Part shown: piece by piece, positions 13,149-61,315 of the stretch | How positions within the stretch are numbered: position 1 is the stretch's first letter | Layout of the letters: the number at the start of each line of letters is the position of its first letter | Position numbers and translations under genes: made by a program | Notes under the pieces: model-generated | What the model saw: the letters and a program-made list of their open reading frames with translations, nothing else | Told to the model about the DNA's origin: nothing | Databases searched by the model: none | Assembly (NCBI GenBank): GCA_038874135.1 | Contig: JAVZCZ010000001.1 | Location: 800,001 to 864,000, forward strand | Direction of reading: 5' to 3' | Source: Candidatus Woesearchaeota archaeon | Lineage (GTDB): Archaea > Nanobdellota > Nanobdellia > Woesearchaeales > 0-14-0-80-44-23 | Length of the DNA stretch: 64,000 nucleotides

Positions 13149-13153
13149 TTTTC

Positions 13154-14983: not shown

Positions 14984-15298
14984 TTACAAAATTTCAGAGC
15001 AGAGCCATCTGTAATATTCTTTATTTGCCTCAGCTTCCATTTTGAGAATGCAGGGAACATCGTATGGGTGAACCTTTTCAATTTCTCTTTTGACACTATT
15101 AAAATTGCTGGCTCTTGTTTTTAATATCAGTGCATATTCCCTTGCGCGCTCAACTCTTCCATTCCACTTATAGATACTGTCTATTCTGAACATATTTGCG
15201 CAGGCGACCAGCTTCTTACTAATTAGCAGCTCAGCTATCTCCTCTGCATTTTTCTTGCTCGGACAGGTAGTGTATGCTAGCACTATATTTTTTCCCAC
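14984..15298 (-). CDS. cutA: Divalent-cation tolerance protein CutA
   Basis: LVACAN…SIYKWNG…HPYDVPCI. Confidence 0.93.
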   Translation of the reverse strand: MGKNIVLAYTTCPSKKNAEEIAELLISKKLVACANMFRIDSIYKWNGRVERAREYALILKTRASNFNSVKREIEKVHPYDVPCILKMEAEANKEYYRWLCSEIL

Positions 15299-42858: not shown

Positions 42859-42865
42859 GTTTTAA

Positions 42866-43894: not shown

Positions 43895-43920
43895 CCCTTT
43901 ATAAATTTTCTTATAGCTGC

Positions 43921-44292
43921 TTATGGCTCTATAACGCTTCCATCCTCTGAAAGAGCAACTATGCGCATAGAAAGTCCAAGCTTGAGCACTGCCGAGATTA
44001 GTGCAGTATGCTCCCTACCTTCCCCAGAGATTAGGCAGACCCCCACTTCTAAGTCGGGAATCTTTCCATCTAGGAAACTTACTATCTTTTCAGACATCTC
44101 TCTTATGCTTCCCTCAAAGTTTAGCACCAAGAATTCTGTTTCCTTATCGCTCTTTATCCTCTTTTCATAATTCTGCCTGCCAAACTCATTGGTAACTAGA
44201 AAAACCTTGTCCCAAGGCTCCTTCCTAATTATCTCTCCAAGGGCAGCCCAGCTTCCCCTTCCGCTGCCTAGCACAGCTACCAGAGAGGTCAT
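43921..44292 (-). CDS. Small Rossmann-like protein, possibly a stand-alone CARF-like domain
   Basis: LVAVLGSGRGSW…DKVFLVT…VCLISGEGREHTAL. Confidence 0.6.
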   Translation of the reverse strand: MTSLVAVLGSGRGSWAALGEIIRKEPWDKVFLVTNEFGRQNYEKRIKSDKETEFLVLNFEGSIREMSEKIVSFLDGKIPDLEVGVCLISGEGREHTALISAVLKLGLSMRIVALSEDGSVIEP

Positions 44293-44303
44293 ACAGATTC
44301 CCT

Positions 44304-44783
44304 TTAATCTTCACTTATTTTAAGAACCTTGACTTTAAAGTTTAGCGACTTTCCAGCCAGGGGATGGTTAAAATCCAGAAGTGCAGTTTCCTTCTTCACT
44401 TCCAAAACCTGAGCGTAAAGCCTTCTACCTTGCATGTTGAACATTATCCGCATCCCCCTTTCAGGTTTGAGCTTTCCCTCAAATAAGGCTAGCGGAATCT
44501 CCTGAATGAGGTTTTCATTTCTAAAACCATACGCCTGCTCGGGCTTTAAATGAATCTCCTTCTCAGAGTTCAGATGCATTCCTCTAATTGCCTTCTCAAA
44601 ATCTGGAAGGAGCTCTCCCTCTCCCATCTTGAATACAAGCGGGTTACCATCCTGGCTTCTATCAAAAACTTCCCCATCCTCTAAAGTTCCGATATAACTT
44701 ATTGCAACCCTGCTATGCTCTCCAACAACTTCTTCATTCACACTTGGACTTACGCCCTTTTCCTTACTGATTTTTTTTGCCAT
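44304..44783 (-). CDS. slyD: FKBP-type peptidyl-prolyl isomerase (SlyD-like)
   Basis: YIGTLEDGEVFD, PEQAYG, DFNHPLAGKSLNF. Confidence 0.93.
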   Translation of the reverse strand: MAKKISKEKGVSPSVNEEVVGEHSRVAISYIGTLEDGEVFDRSQDGNPLVFKMGEGELLPDFEKAIRGMHLNSEKEIHLKPEQAYGFRNENLIQEIPLALFEGKLKPERGMRIMFNMQGRRLYAQVLEVKKETALLDFNHPLAGKSLNFKVKVLKISED

Positions 44784-44828
44784 TTTCAATAAACAATCCA
44801 ACTCCTAATTATAAATCTTGTGTATTTG

Positions 44829-44836
44829 AAAGTGAA
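44829..44836. repeat. Left 8-bp target-site duplication AAAGTGAA
   Basis: Identical to 58173-58180; abuts the left TIR. Confidence 0.88.
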
Positions 44837-44848
44837 GGTTCTGTTAAC
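44837..44848 (+). repeat. Left terminal inverted repeat GGTTCTGTTAAC
   Basis: Exact reverse complement of 58161-58172. Confidence 0.9.
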
Positions 44849-44859
44849 AAATGGATTAC

Positions 44860-45786
44860 TCATTTATTTAGAACCTCTGTAAGCTTTACTTGCTTCCTCT
44901 TTTCTAACAACTCATTGATTCTTTTTTCAGCAAGTTTCACATATTCCTTATTAATATCATATCCGACAAATCGACGGTTACTCATTAATGCTGCAACAGC
45001 AGTACTTCCACTTCCGATAAATGGGTCTAAAACTACATCATTTTCAAAAGTATAAAGTTTAATGCATCTTAATGGTAGTTCAACAGGAAAAGGAGCAGGA
45101 TGCCCTACTCTTTTTGCCGATTCTGCTCCAAAAGTCCAGACACTTTTTGTCAATTCTAAAAATTCATCTTTAGTCATTGTTGCCGGTTGGTCATCGTGAT
45201 TGAATCTTGAAAATGTTTCTTTTGAAAAAACCAAAATGTATTCGTGAATATCCCTTAACACAGGATTTTTTGCAGATAACCAACTGCCCCATGCAGTAGA
45301 TGGGCTTGCTGTTGATGCTTTATTCCAAATTATTTCCCCTCGCATTAAAAAACCAAGTTTCTGCATATCTTCAATAATAAAAGAATGAAGTGGGATATAC
45401 GGCTTTCTACCCAAGTTAGCTATATTTATGCAGGCTCTCCCTCCGGGAACAAGAACACGATAAACTTCTTTCCATACTCTTATTAAAAATTCTCTATATT
45501 CACTCAAAGATAAATTTTCATCATACTCTTTGCCAACATTGTAAGGGGGAGAAGTAACCATTAAATGAACACTATTATCTGGCAATTCTTCCATTTTCTC
45601 GCTGGATTTACAAAATACATGATTTATATTTTTATCACTTATTTTATTTTCTACAAAAATGACCTTATCTTTCTCTGTCGATAATCCTTCATAAAGTCGG
45701 CTATTATAAAATTTAGATGAATCATGGTTCATTCTACCCGGAGAGCCGAATTTGCTGGTTTCTGTACCGTTTTTTCTATTTACCAT
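44860..45786 (-). CDS. Type II DNA methyltransferase, beta class (N4C/N6A)
   Basis: VTSPPY, HPAPFP, VLDPFIGSGST. Confidence 0.93.
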   Translation of the reverse strand: MVNRKNGTETSKFGSPGRMNHDSSKFYNSRLYEGLSTEKDKVIFVENKISDKNINHVFCKSSEKMEELPDNSVHLMVTSPPYNVGKEYDENLSLSEYREFLIRVWKEVYRVLVPGGRACINIANLGRKPYIPLHSFIIEDMQKLGFLMRGEIIWNKASTASPSTAWGSWLSAKNPVLRDIHEYILVFSKETFSRFNHDDQPATMTKDEFLELTKSVWTFGAESAKRVGHPAPFPVELPLRCIKLYTFENDVVLDPFIGSGSTAVAALMSNRRFVGYDINKEYVKLAEKRINELLEKRKQVKLTEVLNK

Positions 45787-45804
45787 TTATTTCCCTCATC
45801 AAAT

Positions 45805-46671
45805 TTAGGAATTTTTCTGCTTTTTTTCGTAAGTATTTTCTTTATTAGCAATCTCAATGAATTTACCCAATTCATTCTTTGATCTCATGCCCGCAAAGAA
45901 CATCATATCTTCTTTTAGCAAAGCTAAAAGTTGAGTTTTGAAATCTAAATAAGAATCAAATCTCAAAAATCCTTTTCCTTTTGTTGCTTTTACATTATCG
46001 CCGTTGTTGTCTAATGGCGCAGGATTTAATGACCAGAACCCTTGTATAATCCCATAATTCTTTAAATTATCAACTTTAGAATAATAACTTTTCATTACAG
46101 GAGTATTACCTAAAACAATTATTGGTATTTTTGCTGATTCCAAAGAGGAAATTCTAACAGTTATGCTTTTTCCAATTGCTTTTAGCATACTATCTGAACG
46201 CAATAATCCCGGATTTCCTTGATGTGTCTTAAAGTCACCTAAACATTTTAATGAATATTTGGAATCATTTTTTAGAAGCTCCCAATTCCAAACAATAGAC
46301 ATCTTCACCTCAAAAATAGCTATAATATCTTGTGGTCTCTGAACAACCGAATCTGTTTTGCAAATTGCGACATCAGCAGGAGAACCTTTTGTAAGCTCCA
46401 ATTCTTCACAAACTACATTCCTAACAGCATATGCATTCAAATCTTTAGCAACATCTTTTAGAAGTTCAACCGACCATTTTTCTGTATATGCTCCAATAAA
46501 AGCGTTTCTGCTCTGCAAAGTAGTTTTAGGTCCTTTGTAATTTTTCGGCCAATAGGCATAATATTTCTTGTTTTTTGTAGTGTAAAATAATTGCTCGGGA
46601 GAAGCAACTTCTAAAGATTTTGTGAAAAAATCGATTTCTTGTTCTTTTGTCCATAATTTTTTATCTAGCAT
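45805..46671 (-). CDS. Putative type II restriction endonuclease; C-terminus possibly frameshifted
   Basis: PADVAI…IFEVK (PD-(D/E)xK); lies directly upstream of the MTase. Confidence 0.75.
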   Translation of the reverse strand: MLDKKLWTKEQEIDFFTKSLEVASPEQLFYTTKNKKYYAYWPKNYKGPKTTLQSRNAFIGAYTEKWSVELLKDVAKDLNAYAVRNVVCEELELTKGSPADVAICKTDSVVQRPQDIIAIFEVKMSIVWNWELLKNDSKYSLKCLGDFKTHQGNPGLLRSDSMLKAIGKSITVRISSLESAKIPIIVLGNTPVMKSYYSKVDNLKNYGIIQGFWSLNPAPLDNNGDNVKATKGKGFLRFDSYLDFKTQLLALLKEDMMFFAGMRSKNELGKFIEIANKENTYEKKQKNS

Positions 46672-46819
46672 TTTTCTTACCTTCCCTTTTTATCTCCTCG
46701 ACCATAAAGTTCTCAAATTGCTTTGATACAATCAAACCTTTTTGGTCACAAATATTTTTATAATCCTCATAAGTTTTAGCATCAACGCTTAATGTAATAG
46801 TTCTTTTTCCGTTACCCAT
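46661..46819 (-). CDS. Ribbon-helix-helix protein (52 aa), putative R-M controller; absent from the ORF track
   Basis: GAGGGG RBS; MGNGKRTITLSVDAKTYEDYKNICDQKGLIVSKQFENFM…; overlaps the REase start by 11 nt. Confidence 0.78.
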   Translation of the reverse strand: MGNGKRTITLSVDAKTYEDYKNICDQKGLIVSKQFENFMVEEIKREGKKNAR

Positions 46820-46944
46820 ATTAACCCCTCAATAAATAAACATATTTAAACATATTTATAAACTTTACCTCAAAACTGCGGCAACAACGAATTTTCGCCT
46901 TCGGTATCGTTGCACTAAAATTTTGTCTTCCCTTCTGTCAGAGA

Positions 46945-47103
46945 GCATAACAGCGATTTAATAGTTCTCAGGGTCGGCTTCGCCTAAAACGCCAAGCGTT
47001 TTCCCCTGCTCTCTCAAATTGAAATTTTGGAGGTCGCTCGGCTGGGTTGCCTGCCTCGCTCCAACTCTCAAAATTCAACTTCGTTAAATTCCGTAAGTTA
47101 AGT
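46945..47103 (+). repeat. Integron attC-like site 1
   Basis: GCATAAC-AGCGA-TTTAATAG … CGTTAAA-N8-GTTAAGT, with internal imperfect hairpins. Confidence 0.6.
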
Positions 47104-47286
47104 GAAATAAAAAATGGGTTGCGGGAGTGCCTTCGGCAAAGATTGTCTCGCCTTGCGCGGATATTATAAAACTGATTTTTTCGTTTCCTAACTTTATAGG
47201 ACAGGGCGGTATTTAAACGAAAAGATTAGTAAATTGAGGAAAAAACTTATAAATATGATGATAGGTATCGAAACACGGATGATAAA

Positions 47287-48810
47287 ATGAAGAACAACGG
47301 AGCAAATTTAGGTTTTGAACAAAAACTCTGGCAGGCGGCAGACAAGCTGAGAAGCGACATGGATGCTGCAGAATACAAGCACGTTGTTTTGGGATTAATT
47401 TTCTTAAAATACATTTCTGACTCATTTAAAGAAGTTTATGACGAATTGAAAAAAGATCCAGAAGCTGATCCAGAAGATGTTGATGAATATATTGCAAGAA
47501 GAGTTTTCTGGGTTCCAAAAGAAGCGAGATGGGATTATTTGCAAGCCAATGCAAAAAAACCAGAGATAGGTGAATTAATAGATCATGCAATGGATATTAT
47601 CGAAAGAGACAATCCATCGTTAAAAGGTGTTCTTCCAAAGATTTATGCACGGCCAGCACTAAGTAAACAGCGTCTTGGAGAACTCATAGACATAATCGGC
47701 ACTATTGGTTTAGGTGATAAAGAAAATAAGAGCAAAGATATTCTAGGCAGGGTTTACGAATATTTTCTTGGACAATTTGCGGATGCAGAAGGAAAGAAAG
47801 GTGGTCAGTTCTACACACCGAAATGTATTGTAAAATTACTTGTTGAAATGCTTGAGCCATACAATGGCAGGATATTTGATCCTTGTTGCGGCTCAGGAGG
47901 AATGTTTGTTCAATCAGAAAAATTTGTTGAAGCTCATGGCGGCAAAATAGGAGATATTTCAATTTATGGCCAAGAAAGTAATCAAACAACATGGCGTTTA
48001 TGCAAAATGAATCTTGCAATAAGAAGAATAGATGCAAACATAAAATGGGGCAATTCATTCCATGATGATCAGTTTAAAGATTTAAAAGCTGATTTTATTC
48101 TTGCTAATCCTCCTTTTAACGATTCAGACTGGCGCGGCGAGTTGTTGCAGGAAGATGTGAGATGGAAATATGGTATTCCTCCAAAAGGAAATGCTAATTT
48201 TGCATGGGTTCAGCATTTCATCCATCATTTATCGCCAACAGGGACAGCAGGGTTTGTTCTTGCTAATGGCTCTTTAAGTTCAATGACCTCTAATGAAGGT
48301 GAGATAAGAAAAAATATTGTTAAAGCGGATTTAGTAGATTGCATTGTTGCTCTGCCATCTCAACTTTTCTATAACACAATGATTCCTGCTTGTCTATGGT
48401 TTGTTTCTCGCGATAAAAAAGACAACAAGTTCAAAGATAGACGAGGAAAGATTCTGTTTATTGATGCAAGAAAAATGGGTGTAATGATCGATAGAAGACA
48501 TAGAGAATTAACAGATGAGGAAATAAAGAAAATTGCTGATACTTATCATGCATGGCGTGGAGAAAATAACCTTGAATATAAGGATATTCCCGGCTTTTGT
48601 AAATCTGCCTCATTAGAAGAAGTTGAAAAAAACAATTTTATCTTAACACCAGGCAGATATGTCGGCTTTGAAGAGCAAGAAGAGCCGGAAGAAGTTTTTG
48701 AAGAAAAAATGAAAAAACTAACAGCAGAGCTAAAACAACAAATGGAAGAAAGCAAAAAGCTCGACGAAGAAATAAAAAAGAATTTGGAGAGGTTGGGGTG
48801 GAGGGTTTAG
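47287..48810 (+). CDS. hsdM: Type I R-M methyltransferase subunit
   Basis: [28 protein letters not shown]. Confidence 0.96.
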
Positions 48811-48813
48811 AAG

Positions 48814-49947
48814 ATGATGTATAGAATAAGAAAATATCTAGCTTATAAACAATTCATCCCAACAAAAAAAGATTTAGATTGTGAAAAATTAAAGGAGTTG
48901 ACAAATCAGTTAAAAACAAAAACCTTTGACGAAACTTTAGTTAATATTGCTGAATGGCAAGACAGAAATATAAAATACTGGGATGAAAGAGGAGGCATAA
49001 TTAATTATATACTTATCGTTTCTATAACTATTTTGTCAATAATTATAGGCAATATAAATAATTTTGCTTATTTTTTGTTACTGCTAATACCTTTTTTGAT
49101 AATTGGAAAAGAAACTTTAAACATAATTTTCAATATAATAATTTTAGGCGTATCTCTTTTGTTGCCTTTTGTTTTTTTAATTTTAACTATTCCTTCAATA
49201 ACAATAAGTTCAAATTTTCTAATTTTATTTATTGCATTATCCTTTATTTTGGGTGCGTTTATATCTTCAATTTTGAGTATCTATTTTAAGTATCGTAATA
49301 TCAAAAGGTTTATTCCAGATTTTGACATGGGGGATACTTTTAAATTAAGCTTACCTGTAGAAAAAATATTAAAATATCGACTTTCAATATGTAGAGATTA
49401 TGCAAAATTAACAGCTGCTCTACTTTTAAGCATTTATCCAAAAAACGAAGTTTATTTTTTATTAATACCTTCTCATGTTGCGGTTGGTATTAAAAAAGAC
49501 AATAATATATTTGTTATAGATCAGAAACTACCTATTTTAACATTCAATAGCTGGAAAGAAAAATGGAAAAAAAGATTTAATAAAAAAAGATTAAATATAG
49601 AAATATTTAAGATTTATTTAAAAAATAAAGATATTGAAATTCAACCAATCAAAGAAAAAAATATTATTGAACAAAAAACTATTTTAGATATTAAAAAATT
49701 AAATAAAAATTTATCCAGTCTCTTAAACATAGATGAAGTCAAAGAAAAAAAGAAACCGAGTTTAGAAATACCTATTAAAAATATATTACCCCTAATTCAA
49801 AATGAAGAATTAATTGAAAAATCTTTATTTGAATTTATAAAAAACAAAATCGAAGATGAATTAGTAGGAAATATAAAAAATTTGAAGGGCATTCATTTAG
49901 AAAAAAGAAATGATGACTTGATAATAAAATTATGGTTAAAAATATGA
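48814..49947 (+). CDS. Membrane protein with transglutaminase-like Cys-His-Asp domain
   Basis: TM block, then ICRDYAKL, SHVAVG, FVIDQ; very AT-rich. Confidence 0.75.
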   Translation: MMYRIRKYLAYKQFIPTKKDLDCEKLKELTNQLKTKTFDETLVNIAEWQDRNIKYWDERGGIINYILIVSITILSIIIGNINNFAYFLLLLIPFLIIGKETLNIIFNIIILGVSLLLPFVFLILTIPSITISSNFLILFIALSFILGAFISSILSIYFKYRNIKRFIPDFDMGDTFKLSLPVEKILKYRLSICRDYAKLTAALLLSIYPKNEVYFLLIPSHVAVGIKKDNNIFVIDQKLPILTFNSWKEKWKKRFNKKRLNIEIFKIYLKNKDIEIQPIKEKNIIEQKTILDIKKLNKNLSSLLNIDEVKEKKKPSLEIPIKNILPLIQNEELIEKSLFEFIKNKIEDELVGNIKNLKGIHLEKRNDDLIIKLWLKI

Positions 49948-51170
49948 AACCCCAAAAACCCAAATTCAAACAAACCGAAATCGGAATGATTCCTGAGGAT
50001 TGGGAAGAAACAACAATTGGGGTTATCTGCAATATTAAAAATGGTAAAACTAACACGCAGGATGCTGTAGAGGATGGAGAATACCCTTTATTTGATCGTT
50101 CAGCGCAAATTAAACGAAGTAACAAATTTATATTTGATTGTGAAGCAATAATTGTGCCTGGTGAAGGAAAAGAATTTCTACCACGATATTTTGAAGGGAA
50201 ATTTGATTTACACCAAAGATCTTATGCTATTTGGAAAAAAGAAAATGTTAATCTAAAGTTTGTTTATTATTGGATTCTTAAAAATAGAGATTATCTCTCT
50301 AGAGTTGCTGTTGGTTCTACTGTTAGATCTCTAAGAATTGGTCATTTACAAAGTTTTCCATTAGGTTTACCTCCCCTCCCCGAGCAACGAGCAATTGCAA
50401 AAATTCTTTCTGACCTTGACTCTAAAATAGAACTATTACAAAAAATGAACAAAACACTTGAAACAATCGGCCAGGCAATTTTCAAGCACTGGTTTGTTGA
50501 TTTTGAGTTTCCAAACGAGGAAGGCAAGCCTTACAAGTCATCAGGTGGCGAGATGGTTTATAATGAAGAATTAGGCAAAGAAATACCGAAGGGATGGAGG
50601 GTTGGAGAATTAGGAAAATTTATAGAGTTTGTAAAAGGAAAAAAACCGAAAGTTGTTTTTAATACTGATAAAGAAGGATTACCACAAATACTAATAGACG
50701 TCCTAGAAGGAGGAAAACCTGCTTTTGTAGATCCAAAAGACATGATTATCTGCAATGAAGAAGATATTATTATGGTTATGGATGGGGCAAGCTCTGGAAG
50801 AATAGAAAGAGGATTTAGTGGTGTTTTAGGTTCCACTCTTGCAAAAATAAAAATAAAAGAATTAAATCAAGATTATATTTATTATTTACTGAAGAATAAG
50901 GAACAAGAAATTAAAGAAAATACTACTGGGACTTCCATTCCACATGCAGATAAAAAGAAAATAGAAAAATTTCTTATTGTTATACCGCCAAAAAAAGTTC
51001 TGGATATTTTTAAAAATAAAATCCTTTTAAAACAAATCGCATTAAAAAAAGAGATTAAAACCCTCTCCCAACTCCGCGATTCTCTCCTTCCTAAACTTAT
51101 ATCTGGCAAAATAAGAGTGCCTGCTGAGATGATAAAAGAGATGGAAAAGGAGATTGAAAAATCTACTTAA
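49944..51170 (+). CDS. hsdS: Type I R-M specificity subunit
   Basis: IPEDW…PPLPEQRAIA…IPKGW…LRDSLLPKL; two TRDs; ATGA overlap with the upstream gene. Confidence 0.95.
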   Translation: MKPQKPKFKQTEIGMIPEDWEETTIGVICNIKNGKTNTQDAVEDGEYPLFDRSAQIKRSNKFIFDCEAIIVPGEGKEFLPRYFEGKFDLHQRSYAIWKKENVNLKFVYYWILKNRDYLSRVAVGSTVRSLRIGHLQSFPLGLPPLPEQRAIAKILSDLDSKIELLQKMNKTLETIGQAIFKHWFVDFEFPNEEGKPYKSSGGEMVYNEELGKEIPKGWRVGELGKFIEFVKGKKPKVVFNTDKEGLPQILIDVLEGGKPAFVDPKDMIICNEEDIIMVMDGASSGRIERGFSGVLGSTLAKIKIKELNQDYIYYLLKNKEQEIKENTTGTSIPHADKKKIEKFLIVIPPKKVLDIFKNKILLKQIALKKEIKTLSQLRDSLLPKLISGKIRVPAEMIKEMEKEIEKST

Positions 51171-51184
51171 AAGGAAAGATTTAA

Positions 51185-51223
51185 ATATTAACTAAAGTTA
51201 ATATATATTAACTATGGTTAATA
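51185..51223 (+). promoter_or_regulatory. Tandem palindromic operator of MNT-HEPN pair 1
   Basis: ATATTAACT-AA-AGTTAATAT and TATTAAC-TATG-GTTAATA, 20-bp period, running from the TATA box across the ATG. Confidence 0.75.
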
Positions 51224-51762
51224 AATATAAACAAAAGTTAACATTATTACAACAAGAAATTTTGTCTTTGTTGTTTAGAAAAACAGGATTGTCTTTAAAT
51301 CAGAGACAAATAGCAAAAAATTTAGGAGTTAGCCAAGCAGGTATAACAAAAGCTATTCCATTGTTAGAAAAACTTGATTATGTCAAAATAAAGAAGGATA
51401 AGGAAACTGGCAGATGGTCAATAGAAATAAATCAAAGCAACAGAAGAGTTTTGCAGTTAAAAAGAGTGGAGAACTTAAAAAATATTTACGAAACAGGTTT
51501 TTTTGATTTTTTAGAAAAAGAATTTCCTGGAACAACAATAATTTTGTTTGGCAGTTATTCACGAGGAGATGACACAATAAATTCAGATGTTGATATTGCT
51601 ATTATTGGAACAAAGAGAAAAGAAATTGATTTATCAAACTATGAAAAATTGTTTGAAAGAAAAATAAATCTTAATTTCTACAGCTCTTTTTCAGAAATTC
51701 ATAAAAATCTAAAGGAAAATCTTGCAAATGGAATACTACTAGCAGGAGGATTTGAATTATGA
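51214..51762 (+). CDS. wHTH + minimal nucleotidyltransferase (MNT) antitoxin 1
   Basis: LNQRQIAKNLGVSQAGI HTH; LFGSYSRGDDTINSDVD (GSX10DXD). Confidence 0.9.
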   Translation: MVNKYKQKLTLLQQEILSLLFRKTGLSLNQRQIAKNLGVSQAGITKAIPLLEKLDYVKIKKDKETGRWSIEINQSNRRVLQLKRVENLKNIYETGFFDFLEKEFPGTTIILFGSYSRGDDTINSDVDIAIIGTKRKEIDLSNYEKLFERKINLNFYSSFSEIHKNLKENLANGILLAGGFEL

Positions 51763-52190
51763 GAGACTTTAAAGAATTTGTTAAAGAAGGTGTAGTCAAA
51801 AAACAAAAACCTGACAAATCAAGAGCAGAGTATTTAATTAATGAAGCCAATAAATCTTACAATTTACTTTTAATAAAAATTGAAAAATTAGGTGTTAATA
51901 ATGAAACTGCAAATGATTTAATTAAAACATGTTATGATATTATAATGGAGCTGATCAGAGCAAAAATGCTTTTGGAAGGTTATAATGCATCGGGCCATAG
52001 TGCGCATGAAGCAGAAGTTTCTTATCTTTCATTGATTAATTTTAATGAAAGAGACATACAATTTCTTGATCAATTGAGATATTTCAGAAATGGAATAATT
52101 TATTATGGAACTAATTTAAACAAAGATTATGCCGAGAAGGTTATAGATTTCACAAAAAGGATCTACCAAAAATTGAAGAATCAAAAATAA
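51759..52190 (+). CDS. HEPN-domain protein 1
   Basis: Helical protein coupled to MNT; LRYFRNGIIYYG. Confidence 0.82.
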   Translation: MRDFKEFVKEGVVKKQKPDKSRAEYLINEANKSYNLLLIKIEKLGVNNETANDLIKTCYDIIMELIRAKMLLEGYNASGHSAHEAEVSYLSLINFNERDIQFLDQLRYFRNGIIYYGTNLNKDYAEKVIDFTKRIYQKLKNQK

Positions 52191-52194
52191 AAAT

Positions 52195-52313
52195 ATGTTA
52201 ATATTTTTTTAACATTTGTTAATTATTTTTAACATATATTTTGTGGTTTATTTTTCAAAAGATTTAAATATTAATGTTAATTATTTTTAACATATGTTAG
52301 AAATATTTAACAC
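52195..52313 (+). promoter_or_regulatory. Four-copy palindromic operator array of MNT-HEPN pair 2
   Basis: TGTTAA-N6/7-TTAACA at 52195, 52217 and 52274, plus a variant at 52294; TATA at ~52263-52270. Confidence 0.78.
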
Positions 52314-52806
52314 TTTGAAGCCTTTCTTTGAAGATTGTTATAGACGTATTAATGTTCGCGAATATGCAAGAATTCAAAAAATAAGCCCGCCAACAGCTTC
52401 AAAGATTCTTGAAAAATTGCATAAAGAAGGTTTGCTCAAAAAAGAAGAAGAGAATCTTTATAATTATTATTTCGCAAATAAAGATTCTGAGTTTTTCATA
52501 GAATTATCAAGAATTTATTGGAAAAGAATATTAGAAGATTCAGGATTGTTAGAAGAACTAGAAAAAAATCTGCTAAATCCGATAATTTATCTTTTCGGTT
52601 CTTTATCAAAAGCAGAAGCGAAAGTTGATTCTGACGTCGATTTAGCAATTTTCACGCCAGCAAAAAAAGAAATTAATCTTGAAAAATTTGAAAAACTTCT
52701 AAAAAGGAAAATACAGATTTTTGTTTTTAAGGATATGAAAGATGTAAAAAACGAAGAACTGCTTAAAAATATACTAAATGGTTTCAAAATAAAAGGAAGC
52801 TGGTAA
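52294..52806 (+). CDS. wHTH + MNT antitoxin 2
   Basis: INVREYARIQKISPPTASKIL HTH; LFGSLSKAEAKVDSDVD. Confidence 0.9.
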   Translation: MLEIFNTLKPFFEDCYRRINVREYARIQKISPPTASKILEKLHKEGLLKKEEENLYNYYFANKDSEFFIELSRIYWKRILEDSGLLEELEKNLLNPIIYLFGSLSKAEAKVDSDVDLAIFTPAKKEINLEKFEKLLKRKIQIFVFKDMKDVKNEELLKNILNGFKIKGSW

Positions 52807-52807
52807 A

Positions 52808-53212
52808 ATGGACTGGAAAGAATGTTTAAAACAAAGAATTGCGAAAGAAACAAAAGAAGATAAAAATCTAGTAAAATCTTTATTAGAAACAGCAGAAATA
52901 AAATTAAAGTCTGCTGATTCTTTGACTGATGAATTTTTTATAAGCAAAATCTCTTTATTGTATGATTCTCTAAGAGAAATTCTAGAAGCACTAGCTATTA
53001 AAAAAGGGTTTAAGATTTATAACCATGAATGCTACACGGCTTTTCTAAAGGAGATAATAGGTTTGTCAAGGGAAGCAGATATTTTTAATGATTTGAGAAA
53101 AACTAGAAATGATATAAATTATTATGGAAAAAAACTTGAAAAAGAAGAAGCAAAAGTAATTATAGAAAAATTAAAAAATTTGATTTCAAAATTTAAAAAT
53201 ATAATAAAATGA
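52808..53212 (+). CDS. HEPN-domain protein 2
   Basis: YNHEC…[12 protein letters not shown]. Confidence 0.82.
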
Positions 53213-56200
53213 AAAAAGCACTCTCTGAATCGGATGTTGAGGAATTTGTCTTATCACTTTTGGAAAGCTTGGGCTATGAAATAATAAGAGGTAATAGTGA
53301 GGATTACTTACCAAATGGAAGATATGCTCTAAGACAAAGATATGAAGATGTTGTGCTTGTTAGCAGGCTGCGTGAGGCTTTAAGGAGGATTAATCAACAG
53401 GCTTCAGAAGAAGCGAGAGAGCAAGCAATAAAAGAAATTCAAAGGATAGGAAGTCAAAAACTGATTGTGGACAATGAGACCTTTCATAAGATGCTTACTG
53501 ATGGTATCAGTGTTCCAATTACAAAAGCTGGTGAAGAAAGGCATGTTTTGATTAATTTGTTTGACTTTAAAGATATAAAAAATAACGATTTTCTTGTTGT
53601 TAATCAATTTACAGTAATAGAAAACAATGTTGAAAGAAGACCTGATATTGTTTTGTTTGTTAATGGTTTGCCTTTGGTTGTTATAGAGTTAAAAAATCCT
53701 GCTGATGAAAATGCAACAATTTGGACAGCATACAATCAGTTTCAAACATATAAAGAACAGATACCATCTTTGTTCAAATATAATGAGATCTTGGTTATTA
53801 GTGATGGCATAGATGCAAGAGCAGGCACGATTACTTCTGAACCAGAAAGATTTATGCAATGGAAGACAATAGACGGAGAAAAACCAAAGCAAGGATTAAC
53901 AGAAATAGAGATTTTGATTAGAGGAATGCTCGACAAAGAAAGACTTCTAGATATTGTAAGAAACTTTATTGTTTTTGAAAAAGATAAAGAAACAAAAAAG
54001 AAATTGGCAGCGTATCATCAATATTGGGCAGCAAACAAAGCGTTAGAGTCAACAATACAAGCAAGAAAAACAAACAAGAAAGCAGGTATTGTATGGCACA
54101 CACAAGGTTCTGGGAAGAGCCTAACAATGATATTTTATGCAGGAAAGTTAATTAAAGAGCTCGATAATCCAACAATAGTTATTCTTACAGATAGAAACGA
54201 CCTTGACGATCAGTTATTTGGAACATTCGGCAAATGTCAAGATATTTTAAGACAAAAACCAGTTCAAGCAAACACAAGAAAAGAATTACAAGAATTACTC
54301 AAGGTCTCTTCAGGGGGGATAGTTTTTACAACAATACAAAAGTTTTTCCCAGAGGAAGACAGAGAAAAATATCCTGTGCTTTCCCAAAGAGACAATATTA
54401 TAGTTATAGCAGACGAAGCTCACAGAAGCCAGTATGGTTTTACAGCAAAAATACTAAAAAAAGAGGATAGAGCATTAATTACTTACGGTTATGCAAAGTA
54501 TTTGAGAGACGCTTTGCCTAATGCATCATTTATTGGCTTTACTGGAACCCCTATAGAAAAAGCAGATAGATCAACTCCTGCAGTTTTTGGAAAATATGTT
54601 GATGTTTATGATATAGAACAAGCAGTAAATGATGGTGCAACTGTAAGAATTTTTTATGAAAGCAGATTAGCAAAACTGGAGTTAAAACCAGAAGAAAGAC
54701 CAAAAATAGACCTTGAATTTGAAGAGGTAACAGAAGGAGAAGAGATAGCACATAAAGAAAGGCTAAAGAGCAAATGGGCAAGATTGGAAAAAATTGCTGG
54801 CGCTCCAAAAAGAATAAAAAGAATTGCACAAGATATTGTTAATCATTTTGAACAAAGGCTTTCTGTTCTTGATGGAAAAGGAATGATTGTTTGTATGTCA
54901 AGAAGAATATGCATCGACCTTTATAATGAAATAATAAAATTAAGACCAGCATGGCATAATGAAGATGATGACAAAGGGTTTATCAAAGTCGTAATAACAG
55001 GCTCTGCTTCGGATTCAAAAGAATGGCAAAAGCATATAAGAAACAAAGTCAGAAGAAAGAAAATAGGCGATAACTTCAAGGATCCAGAACATGAAATTAA
55101 ACTGCTTATTGTAAGAGACATGTTCTTAACTGGTTTCGATGCACCGAGTTTGCACACAATGTATCTTGACAAACCAATCAAAGGTCATACTTTAATGCAG
55201 GCAATAGCAAGAGTTAATAGAGTTTATCCCGGAAAGGAAGGCGGTTTAATTGTTGATTATATTGGTATTGGTGCTGAATTGAAAAAAGCCTTGATGGATT
55301 ATACAGAAAGCGGAGGTAAAGGAAAGCCAATATTAGACCAAGAAGAGGCAGTTAAATTAATGCTCGAGAAATATGAAACTGTAAAGGATATGTTTTATGG
55401 TTTTAATTATAAGAAATTTTTTGAGCTTCCACCAAAAGAAAAATTGGCTTTCATACCAAATGCAATAGAACACTTACTAAAAGAAGCAGGGAAAAAAGAA
55501 AGATTTGTAAAAGAAGCCACAGCTCTTATAAAAGCGTTCTCTTTGTCAGTTCCCCACGAAAAAGCTATGAAAATTAAGGAAGAAGTTGCTTTTTTCCAAG
55601 CAATAAAATCGATAATATCAAAAACAATTGAAACCAAAAAAGATGTAAAAGAAAAATATGAAACGGCGATCAAACAGATTATCTCAAAAGCAGTGATCTC
55701 TGATAGAATTATAGATATATTTGAGGCTGCCGGAATTCAAAAACCCGAGCTTTCAATTTTATCAGATGCTTTTTTAGCAGAAATAAAAGAGATGCCTCAG
55801 AAAAACTTGGCGTTTGAAGCTCTAAAAAAATTATTGAACGATGAGATCAAGATAATTTCAAAAAGAAATCTTGTTCAAGGCAAATCTTTCATGGAGATGC
55901 TAGACACAACAATAAAAAAATATACAAATAGAGCTGTAGAGGCTGCGCAAGTTATAGAAGAATTAATAGAGTTGGCAAGAAAAGTTAGAGAAGAAAAAAA
56001 CAGGGGAAAAGAGCTTGGAATGAGTGAAGATGAACTTGCATTTTATGATGCGCTTGAAGTTAATGATAGCGCAGTTAAAATACTTGGTAATGAAACCTTA
56101 AGAAAAATAGCGCTAGAACTAACGCAGATGATAAGAAAAAGTGTTACAATAGACTGGACACAGAGAGAAAGTGTTCAAGCAGAGTTGCGTCTTAAAGTAA

Positions 56201-56307
56201 AGAAAATACTGAGAAAATATGGTTATCCTCCTGACAAAGAGAAAAAGGCAACAGAAACCGTCTTAAAACAAGCAGAGTTGGTTGCTGGAAATTTAGTTGC
56301 TGTTTAA
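53209..56307 (+). CDS. hsdR: Type I R-M restriction subunit
   Basis: [51 protein letters not shown]. Confidence 0.97.
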
Positions 56308-56670
56308 ATACAAAAAATAGATGCTTGGATCAAGTCTGTTGACAGAGGGTTTTATGATGTTCCCTATACTTATCGCAAAGGAACACATCAAGTTTGGGTA
56401 AAATTTAACCCCGACTTCTTTATCAAGATAGGAAAAGACATTATGGTTGTAGAGATAAAATCTGACGAAGCTATCGCCGAAGGAAATAAAGCCAAATTGA
56501 AATATGCTAGAATACACTTCGAAGAATTGAATAAAAAGCAGAAGAAACTTAAATATTATTCCAAGTTCCTTTCCCCACAAGATTTTCTACAATTTTTTTA
56601 AGCCATAAAATCTGGAAATTATGCAGAATATACTAGTAATCTTGAAGCCGAAATTAAAAGGCTAATTTAA
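56308..56670 (+). pseudogene. 3' remnant of a type III Res-like endonuclease domain
   Basis: No 5' end; IDAWIKSVDRGFYDVPY…FNPDFFIK…VVEIKSD…; internal TAA at 56599-56601. Confidence 0.72.
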
Positions 56671-56671
56671 A

Positions 56672-56762
56672 AGAATAGACCTAGAAATTGACGAGCTCGT
56701 CTATAAGATTTATGACATAAACTGAAGAGGAGAAGAAAATAATTGAAGAAAGTTTCAAATAA
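56672..56762 (+). pseudogene. Extreme 3' remnant of a type IIG/Eco57I-like R-M gene
   Basis: RIDLEIDELVYKIYDI, 1-nt frameshift, TEEEKKIIEESFK*. Confidence 0.65.
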
Positions 56763-56891
56763 CGCCGCCCCGTCTTCTAATAAAAAACGAAAAATCTCCT
56801 AAAATTTCCGCCACGATCCATTTTTACTCTCCTCACAGCTTCACTGTTCGTCGGCACGTTGCACTCGTTCGCCCAAATTTCCCCAACAGGA

Positions 56892-56918
56892 AACTTCGTT
56901 AAATCGCATATGTTAGTT
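56892..56918 (+). repeat. attC-like site 2 (right arm only)
   Basis: AACTTCGTTAAAT-N7-GTTA is shared with 47077-47100. Confidence 0.55.
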
Positions 56919-56974
56919 GCAATTTGCCCCCTCGCTACGAAATGGAAAACGAACGGAAGCCCAACTGCAAACGC

Positions 56975-57322
56975 CTAATGCAACTTATCAATACGATTTT
57001 TTAGCTGATTCTTTAAGAATTTATTTAATGCTTCATCAACAGTTCTTTCTTCGGTTACAATTGGTGTGATGTTGCTGTTTACTAAATCTGAATAAATTCT
57101 TTGCCCCATTCCATAACTGATCACAATCTCACAATCTTTTACATTCTTAATCATGGCTGAATGGTCACAACTTCCACACTCGCTAGAGCTTTTACCAATA
57201 TTTTCCCTATAAGTTCTATTAATCACCTTTCCATTTTGAATATCAAACACTACAAAACCCATTGCTCTACCAAAATGGGGAGATATTGTTTTTTTGTCAT
57301 CACTTGCTATTGCTATCTTCAT
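56975..57322 (-). CDS. NifB/NifX-family (FeMo-cofactor-binding-like) domain protein
   Basis: MKIAIAS…SPHFGRA…ISYGMG. Confidence 0.9.
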   Translation of the reverse strand: MKIAIASDDKKTISPHFGRAMGFVVFDIQNGKVINRTYRENIGKSSSECGSCDHSAMIKNVKDCEIVISYGMGQRIYSDLVNSNITPIVTEERTVDEALNKFLKNQLKNRIDKLH

Positions 57323-57653
57323 CTTGTAACCCCCTCCTCTGACAAAAACCTCTGCCTTTTCTTATAAATTTAAAATTTCCGCCCTCAATTTTAAGGGCTT
57401 TTCCATTTACAATAGAATCAGCAATTTTTTTCCTGGCTGATAAAATTAACCTATGAAAAGTTGGCTGTGAAATATTCATTTTTTTGGCACATTCTTCTTG
57501 TTCCAAGCCTTCTAAATCTTTTAATCTTACAGCTTCAAATTCATCAAGAGTAAGAATTGATTCTTCTAAATCTGATACCGGAATTCCTCTCGGCTTAAAA
57601 TAAGTAACATTTGGTTTTGAAAAGATTCTCCTGCAAAGCCTCGGTCGTGCCAT
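57300..57653 (-). CDS. DUF134 (UPF0251) DNA-binding protein
   Basis: MARPRLCR…FKPRG…DEFEAVRLKD…MNISQPTF…ARKKIAD. Confidence 0.93.
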   Translation of the reverse strand: MARPRLCRRIFSKPNVTYFKPRGIPVSDLEESILTLDEFEAVRLKDLEGLEQEECAKKMNISQPTFHRLILSARKKIADSIVNGKALKIEGGNFKFIRKGRGFCQRRGLQDEDSNSK

Positions 57654-57689
57654 ATTATGAATACTTATTCACATTTCTATTTAAACCTT
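57654..57689 (-). promoter_or_regulatory. Promoter/operator of the DUF134 gene
   Basis: ATTATGAATACTTATTCACATT next to CTATTTAAACCTT (TATA/BRE on - strand). Confidence 0.72.
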
Positions 57690-57717
57690 ACGAAAATAAA
57701 AAAGCAAAAGAATAAGC

Positions 57718-57954
57718 TTACTCCATTTCTTTCAATTTTTTCTCTATCTCTTGCTTTTCCAAATCTATTTCTTTGAGCTCTGCTTCGAGGATTTTCTTTT
57801 CTTCTTCTTTCGTTAAGGTTACTTGTCTTCTAAATCCAACTCCTCTTCTGTAACCTCTGCTAAATCCTCTTCGCATTCCATAACTACAAGGTCCAAGTCC
57901 TCTTCCTGTTAGAGGTCCTAAACCTAAAGGTCCTGTACCGTCTTGTCCTGGCAT
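57718..57954 (-). CDS. DUF5320 family protein
   Basis: MPGQDGTGPLGLGPLTGRGLGPC, Gly/Arg-rich segment, coiled coil; GGAGGTG RBS. Confidence 0.88.
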   Translation of the reverse strand: MPGQDGTGPLGLGPLTGRGLGPCSYGMRRGFSRGYRRGVGFRRQVTLTKEEEKKILEAELKEIDLEKQEIEKKLKEME

Positions 57955-57974
57955 TTTGTTCACCTCCTTATGTT

Positions 57975-58013
57975 TAATTATGAATATATATTCATAATTA
58001 CTATTTAAACCTT
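57975..58013 (-). promoter_or_regulatory. Promoter/operator of the DUF5320 gene
   Basis: Perfect 26-bp palindrome TAATTATGAATATATATTCATAATTA next to CTATTTAAACCTT. Confidence 0.78.
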
Positions 58014-58160
58014 TCGGTTTTTCGTGGTGGGGCTTCTAAAATATGGTCTGTTACGCAGAAATAATAATAAATGTTCGATGGCAAAAATTCAGAGCTGTTG
58101 ATTCTGCATAAATTTGGTGATAAAAATGAAGATTTTTAATGTTTAAGGCATCAACATTAA

Positions 58161-58172
58161 GTTAACAGAACC
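58161..58172 (-). repeat. Right terminal inverted repeat
   Basis: GTTAACAGAACC is the reverse complement of 44837-44848. Confidence 0.9.
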
Positions 58173-58180
58173 AAAGTGAA
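58173..58180. repeat. Right 8-bp target-site duplication AAAGTGAA
   Basis: Identical to 44829-44836. Confidence 0.88.
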
Positions 58181-58214
58181 AAAATTTTTAAATAGCTTCA
58201 AAATTCTTTATGTT

Positions 58215-58846: not shown

Positions 58847-61315
58847 TCACTTGAAGAAGCTGCTCAAATTTCTCTGCTGTTTTTCTCCTTGCGCGCCACC
58901 TACAAGCTCTTCTTCTTCATATCCGAGAACTTCAAATATGCGCCCTACTGATGGAATTATCTGGTTGCTTATGTAGTATTCAGAATCGTAGCTTCCCTCT
59001 TCAGCTTCTTCAGGAAGCTTAGCCCTGTCCCTTATCCTGCCCTTTCCCTCAACTACTATGTAGGGTATTATTGTGCCCGGGCCAACAACCTTTCTCAGCT
59101 CCTTCATCCTCTGAGCAACAGCCACGTGGGGCCCTACGGAGTTGTATTCGTCTACTCCCTTCTGAAGCTGAGTATATATTATGAGTTGTTCGTTGGGAAT
59201 CTTCTTTTCTTTGAGCTTCTCAATTATCTGTCTAACATATTTGAAAGCGGCTTCTCCTTCTCCTCTTTCAAGTATCATTCTCAGAACCTTGGCTTGAACC
59301 TCCTTTCCTATTATTGACCAGTTTCTCCTTACAGTTTCAAAGCCTCTAATCTTTAGCCTTCCAGAGGCTGAGATTAGGGCGTACTTCTTCTTAGCTCCAT
59401 AGCTTCCAGCCTTTGCTGAAACAAATATTCCCCTGGGGTAAAAGTCCTCAAGCTCCATCTCCATTGTTCCAGGAAGTTCCCTGTTTATCTGGTTTAGGAA
59501 GTGTTCAGCATCCTCTCTTCTCTTATCTCCCAGGGTGAAAAATATTGAGTCCGTATCAGAATATAGTACCTTAAATCCGTTCTCAGTGGCTTTATCAATA
59601 ACTTTCTTTATGTAATACCTTCCATAAGCAGTTATGCTCTTTGCACACTCTATGCAGTACCACCTGGCTGCGAAGAAGCCCATATAGCCATACATTGAAT
59701 TTGCTATTGTTTTTAGAGCGTTCTGCCTAGCGTTCAGCAGCTTTTTGTCGTGCTCATTTGCACCTTTGAGAATCTCTTTTATTCTCATCCTTCTTGTTAT
59801 GAGCTCGTTTATCACAGTAGATATGAAGCCCCGCTTCTTTTTACAGAACCAGTAGTCCAGCTCGGGCACATCCTCTTTTGAGCTACGGCAGCATTCACAG
59901 TTAAGCGTGTCGGGAGATATGTTATGAGTTGTTATTATGCTTGGGTAGAGGCTTCTGAAGTCAAAAACAACTATGTTGCTGTAAAGTCCCGGCTGCGGCT
60001 CAAAGACAAACGCTCCAGGGTAGGTCTGCGCCTTTCTAATCCTAACTTCCTGATGGTCTGGCTTGTTTGGGATGAGCTCGTTAAAGTTCTTCGCCTCTTT
60101 TATTAGAAACCACTCAACTATCTGGCTCGGTCCCATTCTGGAAACTTCAAATGCGGGCATTCCGACAATCTTTATCAGCTCCATAAGGTTTTCCAGCGTC
60201 TTTTCCAGAAGCTTATATGTCAGGGCAGAGTCTTGAAGGTTGTATCTGCAAAAAGCCTCCAGCTCTTCAGGATTGTTATCCCAGGCAGATGCCAGCTTTT
60301 CAATTTCAACTTCTTCCTTTCTCTCATCCAAAAGCTCGGAAGCTACAGAATTAAGGTCTAGGTATGTTGTTTCTAGCCCTCTCGCCACAGTATTTCTCAC
60401 AAACTTAAAGACATCAATGTGAGCTATGCCTACAACTCTGCAAGTGCTAATCTGGCCGTGCGAAACTGCGATTGTGCTGTAGTCCATCCCTATGTCCAGT
60501 TCAACCCTATTCTCTTCTGCCCTCTTTTTAAGGTATGGCAGATCGAAGCCGTCTGAGAAATAGCCTGTTATTATGTCCGGCTTGTGCTCTATAATTACCT
60601 GCTTGAACCTTTCTATGAGCTCCCTTTCATCCTTTACAAATTCTATGTAGTCCTCTTTAGTTTTAAACCTCTTCCAGGTTATTACTTTCTTAAAGTTGTG
60701 CGAGTAGAAAGAGCACATAAGGATTGGATCTTTTTCGGGAATCGCCATCTTGCCCTGCGGGTTGTATGTTTCTATGTCAAAAGCCAGTACTTTCAGTTTG
60801 GGTATTGTCTCTTCTGAGAAACATTTGAGTGCAGATGCTTCAAATACCGGCACTCTTGACTTTCTGTTGACAAATTCGCCTTCTGCTTCGCACAGACAGC
60901 ACGGTACTATCTCATTATCTATCAAAAACTTCTTTGAAAACGGGATGTCTTCCTCAAGCACTGAGAAACCCATCTTTTTGATCTCTTCTGCAAAAGCCTC
61001 TGAATCGGAAGGATTCCTGAATTCAACCCTTACCGCTTCAACTTCTCTGCCTACCAGATTCTTTCTGAAAACTTCAGCTGCACTTATCGTTGCAGTAGTG
61101 CCGTTCTTCCTTGTTATTCTCAGTTCTCTTATACTGCTTATTTTATGTCCGCTCAGTGTCTTTTTATCCTCCGGCACTGCCCAAAAGTAGGGATTAAATT
61201 TTGAATACTCCACAGCAATAGGGTCGCCATTCTTATCCCTTCCATACATTATCACACTTGCCCCTTCCTCCCTTACTTTGCCAGCTATTTCCAGAGGATA
61301 AAACTCAATCTTCAT
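58847..61315 (-). CDS. polB: Family B DNA polymerase
   Basis: FDIET, FDLPYL, DFRSLYPSII, KTIANSMYG, YSDTDS, KKKYA. Confidence 0.97.
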   Translation of the reverse strand: MKIEFYPLEIAGKVREEGASVIMYGRDKNGDPIAVEYSKFNPYFWAVPEDKKTLSGHKISSIRELRITRKNGTTATISAAEVFRKNLVGREVEAVRVEFRNPSDSEAFAEEIKKMGFSVLEEDIPFSKKFLIDNEIVPCCLCEAEGEFVNRKSRVPVFEASALKCFSEETIPKLKVLAFDIETYNPQGKMAIPEKDPILMCSFYSHNFKKVITWKRFKTKEDYIEFVKDERELIERFKQVIIEHKPDIITGYFSDGFDLPYLKKRAEENRVELDIGMDYSTIAVSHGQISTCRVVGIAHIDVFKFVRNTVARGLETTYLDLNSVASELLDERKEEVEIEKLASAWDNNPEELEAFCRYNLQDSALTYKLLEKTLENLMELIKIVGMPAFEVSRMGPSQIVEWFLIKEAKNFNELIPNKPDHQEVRIRKAQTYPGAFVFEPQPGLYSNIVVFDFRSLYPSIITTHNISPDTLNCECCRSSKEDVPELDYWFCKKKRGFISTVINELITRRMRIKEILKGANEHDKKLLNARQNALKTIANSMYGYMGFFAARWYCIECAKSITAYGRYYIKKVIDKATENGFKVLYSDTDSIFFTLGDKRREDAEHFLNQINRELPGTMEMELEDFYPRGIFVSAKAGSYGAKKKYALISASGRLKIRGFETVRRNWSIIGKEVQAKVLRMILERGEGEAAFKYVRQIIEKLKEKKIPNEQLIIYTQLQKGVDEYNSVGPHVAVAQRMKELRKVVGPGTIIPYIVVEGKGRIRDRAKLPEEAEEGSYDSEYYISNQIIPSVGRIFEVLGYEEEELVGGAQGEKQQRNLSSFFK

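Follow-up and report, generated by a model that had tools for sequence, protein, structure and literature searches.

Insertion sequences of the IS6 family are mostly 700-890 bp long, with a maximum of about 1.8 kb, and the catalogue of the family holds one passenger-carrying member and two MITEs (PMC7986276). Their ends are 15-20 bp long, with a GG tip and CTGTT and caaa motifs; cargo is carried by pseudo-compound transposons built on two directly repeated IS copies, and in one case the IS26 transposase seemed to act in cis only (PMC7986276). Passenger genes enclosed by two IS ends and moved in trans are known from the mobile insertion cassettes (MICs), such as MIC231 of the IS231/IS4 family, which is moved by IS231; these are bacterial, IS4-derived and 0.7-3 kb in size (PMC6199540). 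Cassette loading combined with transposition is exemplified by the mobile class 1 integron in Tn402, and integrons and CALINs have been described in archaea in a paper that makes no mention of transposases (PMC9668308).

The 13.3-kb block described here, from a small-genome hot-spring archaeon, resembles IS6/IS26 in the GG tip and CTGTT present at both of its ends, in its 8-bp duplication and in the cognate NF033587 transposase with the N-terminal zinc finger known from the long clade, but it forms one unit between two inverted ends and has no transposase; caaa is seen at the left end only, shifted by one base, and is missing from the family consensus. As in the MICs, IS ends surround passenger genes without a transposase, whereas this element is IS6-derived, archaeal and multi-operon, and its movement in trans is only a candidate mechanism. 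With mobile integrons and with archaeal integrons and CALINs its family shares the layout repeat, recombinase, attI-like site, cassettes with attC-like hairpins, transposase and repeat, as well as defence and toxin-antitoxin cargo. Unlike in integrons, the family recombinase is XerA-like and the transposase is of the IS6 rather than the Tni type, while the 13.3-kb element itself has lost recombinase and attI and retains two decayed hairpins and blocks of up to 9.8 kb, far exceeding the usual cassette size. We regard it as probable that the block arose by deletion from an archaeal IS6-family unit transposon and, being non-autonomous, amounts to a giant mobile insertion cassette.

The element measures 13,336 bp and holds 13 intact cargo genes (Table 1). 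The perfect 12-bp inverted ends (44837-44848 and 58161-58172) and flanking 8-bp duplication reported in the first-pass annotation are exact as written, and are the sole such pair, at spacings of up to 60 kb, in the 910-kb genome. About 0.23 pairs of this kind would be expected by chance among its 11,460 inverted 12-mers, and exact repeats with a duplication are by themselves modest evidence for insertion. The AT-rich shift claimed at the ends is likewise borne out, GC being 0.320 within the element versus 0.408 genome-wide, with the best change points at 44770 and 58240. The empty slyD/M50 site with a single 8-mer, which that annotation had anticipated, exists in the conspecific strain GCA_038731275: it equals the reconstructed site over 174/174 bases, with flanks 99.6-99.8% identical. 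A TATA-like box lies outside each end of the element, in line with the TATA box on each side that the annotation had noted. The filled site recurs in seven other assemblies or runs, and independent assemblies as well as Logan contigs contain the two junctions, which rules out misassembly. The slyD and M50 peptidase genes are also neighbours in a same-family genome; in a same-genus genome (G001) the assembly is broken at this site. The block is thereby confirmed as a genuine transposon insertion with exact boundaries that is strain-variable within the species, being present in some strains and cleanly absent from another. A near-match to the element end at genome position 211621 lies within an open gene of normal GC and was dismissed as chance.

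Table 1. Features of the 13.3-kb element and its borders, numbered within the window (the whole 64-kb stretch of DNA analysed)
Feature	Position	Strand	Basis or remark
TATA-like box of slyD	44809..44816	-	21 nt beyond left end
Left 8-bp target-site duplication copy	44829..44836	+	single copy in empty strain
Left terminal inverted repeat	44837..44848	+	shortened to 12 bp (family repeats 21-24 bp)
Type II N4/N6 DNA methyltransferase, 308 aa	44860..45786	-	PF01555; PADLOC MTase_II, E 5e-148
Putative type II restriction endonuclease, 288 aa	45805..46671	-	Atlas neighbours named restriction endonuclease
Small DNA-binding-like protein, 52 aa, head of type II operon	46661..46819	-	called gene
attC-like site A, degenerate	46945..47103	+	model R1 18.2 bits, E 0.13; arm motifs; GTT, then family-typical cassette start
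Type I R-M HsdM	47287..48810	+	Pfam, PADLOC
Membrane protein with transglutaminase-like DUF553 domain, between hsdM and hsdS	48814..49947	+	PF04473
Type I R-M HsdS	49932..51170	+	Pfam
HTH-MNT + HEPN-like pair 1, PADLOC PDC-M05-like	51214..52190	+	Pfam, PADLOC
HTH-MNT + HEPN-like pair 2, PADLOC PDC-M05-like	52294..53212	+	Pfam, PADLOC
Type I R-M HsdR, 1032 aa, intact	53209..56307	+	Pfam, PADLOC
PD-(D/E)xK restriction-endonuclease C-terminus, broken relic	56308..56745	+	weak PF19778; Atlas; stops and frame change
attC-like site B	56830..56918	+	model R1 20 bits, E 0.05; 3' arm well kept, 5' arm decayed; then family-typical cassette start
DUF5320 - DUF134 - NifB/NifX-family three-gene operon	56975..57963	-	profile matches
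IS6-family transposase, last 8 codons + stop (KFRAVDSA)	58085..58111	+	C-terminus as in L070 and L110 remnants
Right terminal inverted repeat, full family length	58151..58172	-	12 bp match left end
Right 8-bp target-site duplication copy	58173..58180	+	
TATA-like box of M50 peptidase gene	58187..58194	+	14 nt beyond right end, the family's preferred distance

The exact 12-mer proved too short to be informative, since its matches across 400 order-level genomes stood at control level, and a 20-mer was used instead. The right-end 20-bp sequence recovered 70 GTDB loci, nearly all archaeal, and among them the flanked IS6 transposase that the first-pass annotation had proposed to search for, intact in locus L103 (NF033587, 154 bits against a cut-off of 125) and with an N-terminal zinc domain. 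Complete siblings with 8-bp duplications measure 914, 982, 2772, 2882, 3223, 3807, 4729 and 4920 bp, and the smallest complete one, whose duplication matches at 7/8 positions, 138 bp; a different 8-mer is duplicated at each site. The perfect terminal match extends over 21-24 bp in the siblings versus 12 bp here; an origin of the short left end in recombination at a GTT lying within the repeat agrees with locus L072 and is unsupported for the 13.3-kb element. In a viral collection 15-mer matches to the ends stood at chance level, none being clearly a family end, and a literature search of incomplete coverage returned no description of this archaeal IS6 cargo family. These comparisons place the ends in a widespread archaeal branch of IS6 with zinc-finger transposases.

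Neither Pfam nor six-frame tblastn detected a DDE transposase or tyrosine recombinase encoded inside the element. The absence of an internal transposase gene noted earlier thus holds, but not completely: the last codons of an IS6 transposase survive next to the right end. Loci L070 and L110, which retain longer transposase remnants, are 95-98% identical in DNA over 58084-58172. The broken relic following hsdR was considered as a DDE transposase (56308-56595) and rejected, as it resembles a PD-(D/E)xK nuclease (type III Res tail, TnsA-like fold). Given that cognate transposases passing the NCBIfam IS6 cut-off occur between the same ends, and that the 3' tip of the gene is retained, the view of a non-autonomous element with IS6-type ends is upheld, and the element is supported as an IS6-derived deletion derivative rather than an IS. 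The complete host genome contains a single IS6 remnant, broken and 78% identical to L103, and no intact helper transposase, so the element would now be immobile. A sister element in the same genome was rejected as a helper, its transposase being truncated with four stops and its recombinase interrupted by eight.

These observations bear on the strongest rival explanation, namely that the element inserted autonomously, in cis, by its own transposase and never in trans, the gene being lost later in one deletion. We consider this to have only slightly less than an even chance: it would account for the retained 3' tip, the lack of an intact helper in the host and the many siblings that combine perfect duplications with broken or truncated transposases (L079, L139, L155 and L156), and it accords with the possible cis preference of the IS26 transposase (PMC7986276). 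Against it, both filled haplotypes lack the transposase gene with the same breakpoint, old decay (the relic nuclease and degenerate hairpins) stands alongside a perfect duplication, and the 138-bp and 914-bp elements exist with the same ends and no transposase. This alternative alters only the insertion step, that is the source of the transposase, of the deletion-derivative scenario.

The cargo previously listed (R-M systems, MNT-HEPN pairs and a DUF134 module) is all present, except that the DUF134 operon is not a defence module; it is widespread across the phylum, mostly remote from family ends. The putative endonuclease of the type II operon has no Pfam match, and is 298 aa long in strains with one extra T in the homopolymer at 45821. 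The 52-aa protein, 55% identical to a small gene of the sister element, is probably a ribbon-helix-helix protein. The embedding of accessory genes in type I R-M operons follows a PrrC-type pattern, and the present operon is similar in the interleaving of hsdM, hsdS and hsdR with extra genes and in HsdS domain exchange between strains, but differs in lying in a cassette-like block inside transposon ends. The HsdS specificity domains vary from strain to strain, with both target-recognition domains replaced in a second haplotype (431 aa). Every R-M gene matched by three cargo queries sits in this element or in the sister element.

A further layer, missed by the earlier reading, emerged from the siblings, in which a tyrosine recombinase of non-IntI type is accompanied by an attI-like site and attC-like hairpins. 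In L064, L079, L161, L174, L192 and the sister element, recombinases of this clade end 51-64 bp short of the terminal repeat, and a conserved attI-like motif, whose conservation stops at GTT, lies upstream of the recombinase in more than 20 loci including the sister element; recombinase and motif are both missing from the 13.3-kb element. Hairpins with GTT 28-29 nt from the tip occur at 12/71 ends (null about 1% per GTT), with compensatory changes at 6/8 stem pairs. In the 13.3-kb element two decayed hairpins divide the cargo into three blocks. A hairpin model built without this element matched sites A and B alone in the window, both weakly; the arms of site A pair poorly, neither site rose above background with a generic hairpin detector, and Rfam gave zero matches for the hairpins. 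The cassette start after site A is the one that follows attI-like crossovers in L171, L203 and L214. The XerA-like family recombinase lacks the IntI insertion of about 45 aa, with 18 residues against 63 in VchIntIA, and scores below the TIGR02249 cut-off; given that this insertion has been termed essential for integron function in bacterial work, cassette activity of the family is putative. On these features, the family appears to load genes as integron-like cassettes.

Alternatively, the cargo might have accumulated through nested transposition together with ordinary recombination; the hairpins would then not be cassette sites, and the recombinase would act as a cointegrate resolvase, as TnpI does for Tn4430. 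Cointegrates do arise from IS6 members, for which no resolvase is known (PMC7986276), and the XerA-like character of the recombinase, its missing IntI insertion and the weak hairpins of the 13.3-kb element would fit this alternative. We nevertheless judge it unlikely, as many Woesearchaeota have the same recombinase clade and attI-like motif where terminal repeats are lacking, with downstream hairpins in L171 and L178, sequence changes abruptly after GTT, the hairpins covary and stop at a constant distance from the repeat, and the 13.3-kb element has no internal terminal repeats. Integrated elements typically have AT-rich defence cargo and a short direct repeat, and the block could on that ground be read as a plasmid or virus fragment with the 8-mer as the att core of a tyrosine integrase and the inverted repeat incidental; this is very improbable, as same-end siblings have different 8-mers at every site, which contradicts an att core, transposase codons lie at the right end, no replication or viral gene is found inside and the viral end matches are at chance level. 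A chance repeat or misassembly, despite the chance expectation given above, is refuted by the base-exact empty site, the seven filled assemblies or runs and the GC change points at the ends, and has a negligible probability.

Also not noticed earlier, TATA boxes lie 12-17 nt outside the family ends in 19/81 flanks, versus a mean of 2.5 and a maximum of 12 in shuffled controls, suggesting that the ends land just upstream of TATA promoters. A sigma-70 promoter scan, a model not applicable to archaea, found nothing.

Among strains, two filled haplotypes were recognized, and a SNP mosaic in the flanks suggests that homologous recombination has spread or removed the element. The near flanks of the empty strain resemble those of one filled haplotype more than the two filled haplotypes resemble each other; hence the empty allele may be a secondary loss rather than ancestral. 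The earlier picture of a moving defence arsenal is to be qualified: the element is single-copy and occupies one and the same site in every carrier, and no identical transposase-less element was found at two different sites.

Under the deletion-derivative reading, the ancestor would have been organised like the sister element and L079, in the order left end, tyrosine recombinase, attI-like site, cassettes ending in attC-like hairpins, transposase and right end. The recombinase would, with a likelihood of roughly two in three, have brought in the type II R-M block, the type I R-M/MNT-HEPN block of 9.8 kb and, probably, the DUF134 operon, after which internal deletions may have taken away the recombinase/attI end together with almost the entire transposase. 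A cognate IS6 transposase would have inserted the element directly upstream of a BRE-TATA promoter, duplicating 8 bp, and would probably have done so replicatively, through a cointegrate resolved by host recombination. This transposase may have been supplied in trans by a transient helper, which we rate a little above even, or by the element's own, subsequently lost gene, a little below. The element would today be a fixed-site, immobile defence island that strains exchange through homologous recombination in its flanks and whose specificity changes by HsdS domain exchange. More tentatively, and with rather less than an even chance, the family could represent an archaeal mobile integron: an IS6-type unit transposon inserting at the upstream edge of TATA promoters, perhaps via TBP/TFB-bound DNA, with a tyrosine recombinase lacking the IntI insertion, loading defence operons of about 10 kb, and with transposase-less derivatives of more than 13 kb delivered in trans. 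The 13.3-kb element would then be its largest member seen and the one with a base-exact conspecific empty allele.

Taken singly, the 13.3-kb element would be a dead derivative with no new chemistry. The acquisition of defence arsenals by small-genome DPANN archaea is poorly known, and the strains here differ in both presence of the element and HsdS specificity. With this family the size range of IS6 widens from elements of 0.8 kb to cargo carriers of 13 kb, and two testable questions arise: whether a tyrosine recombinase without the IntI insertion recombines attC-like hairpins, and how a prokaryotic transposase finds the edge of a TATA promoter. If both were true, the family would be an independent archaeal counterpart of the mobile integron, and might serve as a promoter-safe delivery tool in archaea.

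The defence element between slyD and the M50 peptidase gene is a genuine insertion. In the conspecific strain GCA_038731275 slyD adjoins the M50 gene with one copy of the 8-mer, the arrangement that the first-pass annotation had proposed looking for; the junction matches the reconstructed empty site at 174 of 174 bases, and the flanks agree with the window at 99.6-99.8% identity. As the two genes are also neighbours in one genome of the same family, the locus was ancestrally empty. The filled site is present in seven assemblies or runs, some possibly from the same samples as the window, with each junction spanned by Logan contigs, and in all carriers the element is single-copy and at the same site. 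Its perfect 12-bp inverted ends and 8-bp duplication lie exactly where they had been annotated, and no other such pair with a span of up to 60 kb occurs in the 909,956-bp single-contig genome, against a chance expectation of about 0.23 genome-wide. The previously noticed shift to AT-rich sequence at the ends is borne out by a GC content of 0.320 within the element versus 0.408 genome-wide and by the best two change points. The cargo comprises, as annotated, R-M systems with intact reading frames, a DUF134 module and MNT-HEPN pairs, which from their family membership are probably toxin-antitoxin or abortive modules; no transposase or recombinase was found encoded within it.

Features of the defence element, its sister element and related loci
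Feature	Sequence	Coordinates	Description
Defence element proper	window	44837-58172	13,336 bp
GC change points	window	44770; 58240	
Cargo 1	window		type II R-M pair and small DNA-binding gene
Cargo 2	window		type I R-M operon that also holds an embedded DUF553 membrane protein plus two HTH-MNT/HEPN-like pairs
Cargo 3	window		broken nuclease relic
Cargo 4	window		DUF5320-DUF134-NifB/NifX operon
HEPN-like proteins	window	51759-52190; 52808-53212	R-N-x3-YY motif replaces the usual R-x4-6-H in both
attC-like sites	window	46945-47103; 56830-56918	
T homopolymer	window	45821	7 or 8 T, altering the endonuclease C-terminus; 298-aa form overlaps methylase start
HsdS	window; L223 (conspecific)	49932-51170; 4560-5855	target-recognition domains swapped, conserved regions nearly identical
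Mosaic flank variants	window	41584-44584; 58976-59095	among conspecific strains
Sister element	host contig; L002	about 217190-221270; 11189-15271	4.1 kb, decayed
Low-GC island	host contig	about 265000-310000	GC 0.27-0.36, far larger, without ends of this family
MITE	L085	4412-4549	138 bp, bears the defence element's right end (95% identical), beside tRNA-like sequence
Terminal repeat	L105	1006-1076	three tandem 25-bp copies
Transposase-less element	L072	2581-3494	914 bp; SET-domain gene between two hairpins; left end likewise truncated to exactly 12 bp, at a point where the GTTs of a hairpin and of the terminal repeat coincide
IS66-like transposase region	L070	726-2166	upstream of broken IS6 gene

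The 20-mer from the right end recurs at 70 GTDB loci from many phyla, nearly all archaeal, and complete siblings, flanked by 8-bp duplications whose sequence differs at every site, measure between 138 bp and 4,920 bp. One of these, L103 (3,223 bp), encodes an intact 285-aa transposase with an N-terminal zinc domain, which scores 154 bits against an NCBIfam IS6 cut-off of 125 and has 749 homologues with a score below 1e-60. These siblings uphold the IS6 affinity first proposed and, judged by sequence, the ends of the defence element are IS6-derived. Its right 89 bp, 95-98% identical to those of three other loci (L070, at 98%, L085 and L110), contain the stop and last 8 codons of the transposase, and this retained 3' end marks it as a deletion derivative.

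The host carries a second family member, in which the left end is followed by a tyrosine recombinase (a pseudogene with eight stops), an attI-like site, a type II R-M pair, an attC-like hairpin, a transposase remnant and the right end; both end tips are mutated and the duplication is gone. Locus L079 is arranged in this way too, and there the recombinase is intact and the duplication perfect. At six loci, genes of the family's recombinase clade stop 51-64 bp short of the terminal repeat, and a conserved motif ending in GTT, past which the sequence is variable, lies upstream of the recombinase at more than 20 loci, including ones without the terminal repeat. The hairpins have AAC and GTT cores, and 6 of 8 pairs covary; at 12 of 71 ends the GTT of a hairpin is 28-29 nt away from the tip, against a null of about 1%, the constant spacing that cassette entry at a single site would produce. 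A model from other loci finds just two sites in the whole window, both weak, which mark off three cargo blocks, roughly 2.1, 9.8 and 1.2 kb long; the start sequence after each is also found after attI-like crossovers elsewhere. Thus far the sequence patterns make it reasonably probable that the cargo was loaded as cassettes, in which case the recombinase would have driven entry of the blocks. In this XerA-like recombinase some 45 residues are missing at the position of the IntI-specific insertion; hence the family does not fit the definition of an integron (PMC9668308, PMC8138268). The same clade and attI-like motif, without transposon ends, in genomes of Woesearchaeota and others of the phylum (L178, L182-L186, L189, L190, L193-L199) suggest a phylum-wide sedentary integron-like system without IntI.

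Without a transposase, and by its size, the element falls outside the strict IS6 family, whose members are mostly 700-890 bp, with one passenger-carrying member and two MITEs, and whose cargo moves between directly repeated copies (PMC7986276). Lacking IntI it is equally no integron, the archaeal forms of which are described with IntI enzymes and without mention of transposases (PMC9668308). It works like a MIC, known as IS4-derived elements of 0.7-3 kb (PMC6199540), but is built from a mobile-integron-like transposon. A term search of a survey from 2026 on IS elements in archaea (PMC13343696) turned up no passage describing them. To the picture of the family this locus contributes its size, a conspecific empty site exact to the base and cargo that varies between strains.

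The 99.4%-complete host now lacks a helper transposase: its sole IS6 match is the truncated remnant in the sister element, with four stops. The search originally proposed succeeded in sibling L103 and not in the host itself. The observation made at first pass is confirmed and its reading supported with qualifications: the transposase has been lost, leaving its 3' tip, and arrival in trans through another copy's transposase is slightly more likely than loss of the gene in place. The transposase deletion is common to both haplotypes of the filled site, and old decay within the element accompanies a perfect duplication; however, no identical transposase-less element was found at two sites, and in one reported case the IS26 transposase apparently acted in cis only (PMC7986276). 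Loss of the gene after insertion is nearly as probable.

The insertion parts two back-to-back promoters, both left intact, in keeping with the divergent promoter region and paired TATA boxes annotated earlier. Of the 81 flanks tested across the family, 19 have a TATA-like box beginning 12-17 nt beyond the end (0-6 in other equal-width windows; shuffled mean 2.5, maximum 12 in 2,000). The distance is 14 nt at the right end of the defence element and at the left end of the sister element, which lies upstream of the thermosome TATA box. Targeting might proceed via promoter-bound factors or bent DNA.

The two filled-site haplotypes differ across 41.6 to 59.1 kb. In the second, both recognition domains of HsdS are exchanged and the endonuclease gene has one extra T (298 vs 288 aa), a homopolymer difference possibly reflecting phase variation or a plain indel. 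Of this haplotype's variants, the empty strain has 9 of 10 in the left flank and both in the right, and its empty allele could be either ancestral or the product of secondary loss. The mosaic of flank variants among conspecifics shows homologous recombination in this DPANN population. In its present state the element is, most probably, a defence island that no longer moves from its site; homologous recombination in its flanks can spread it or remove it.
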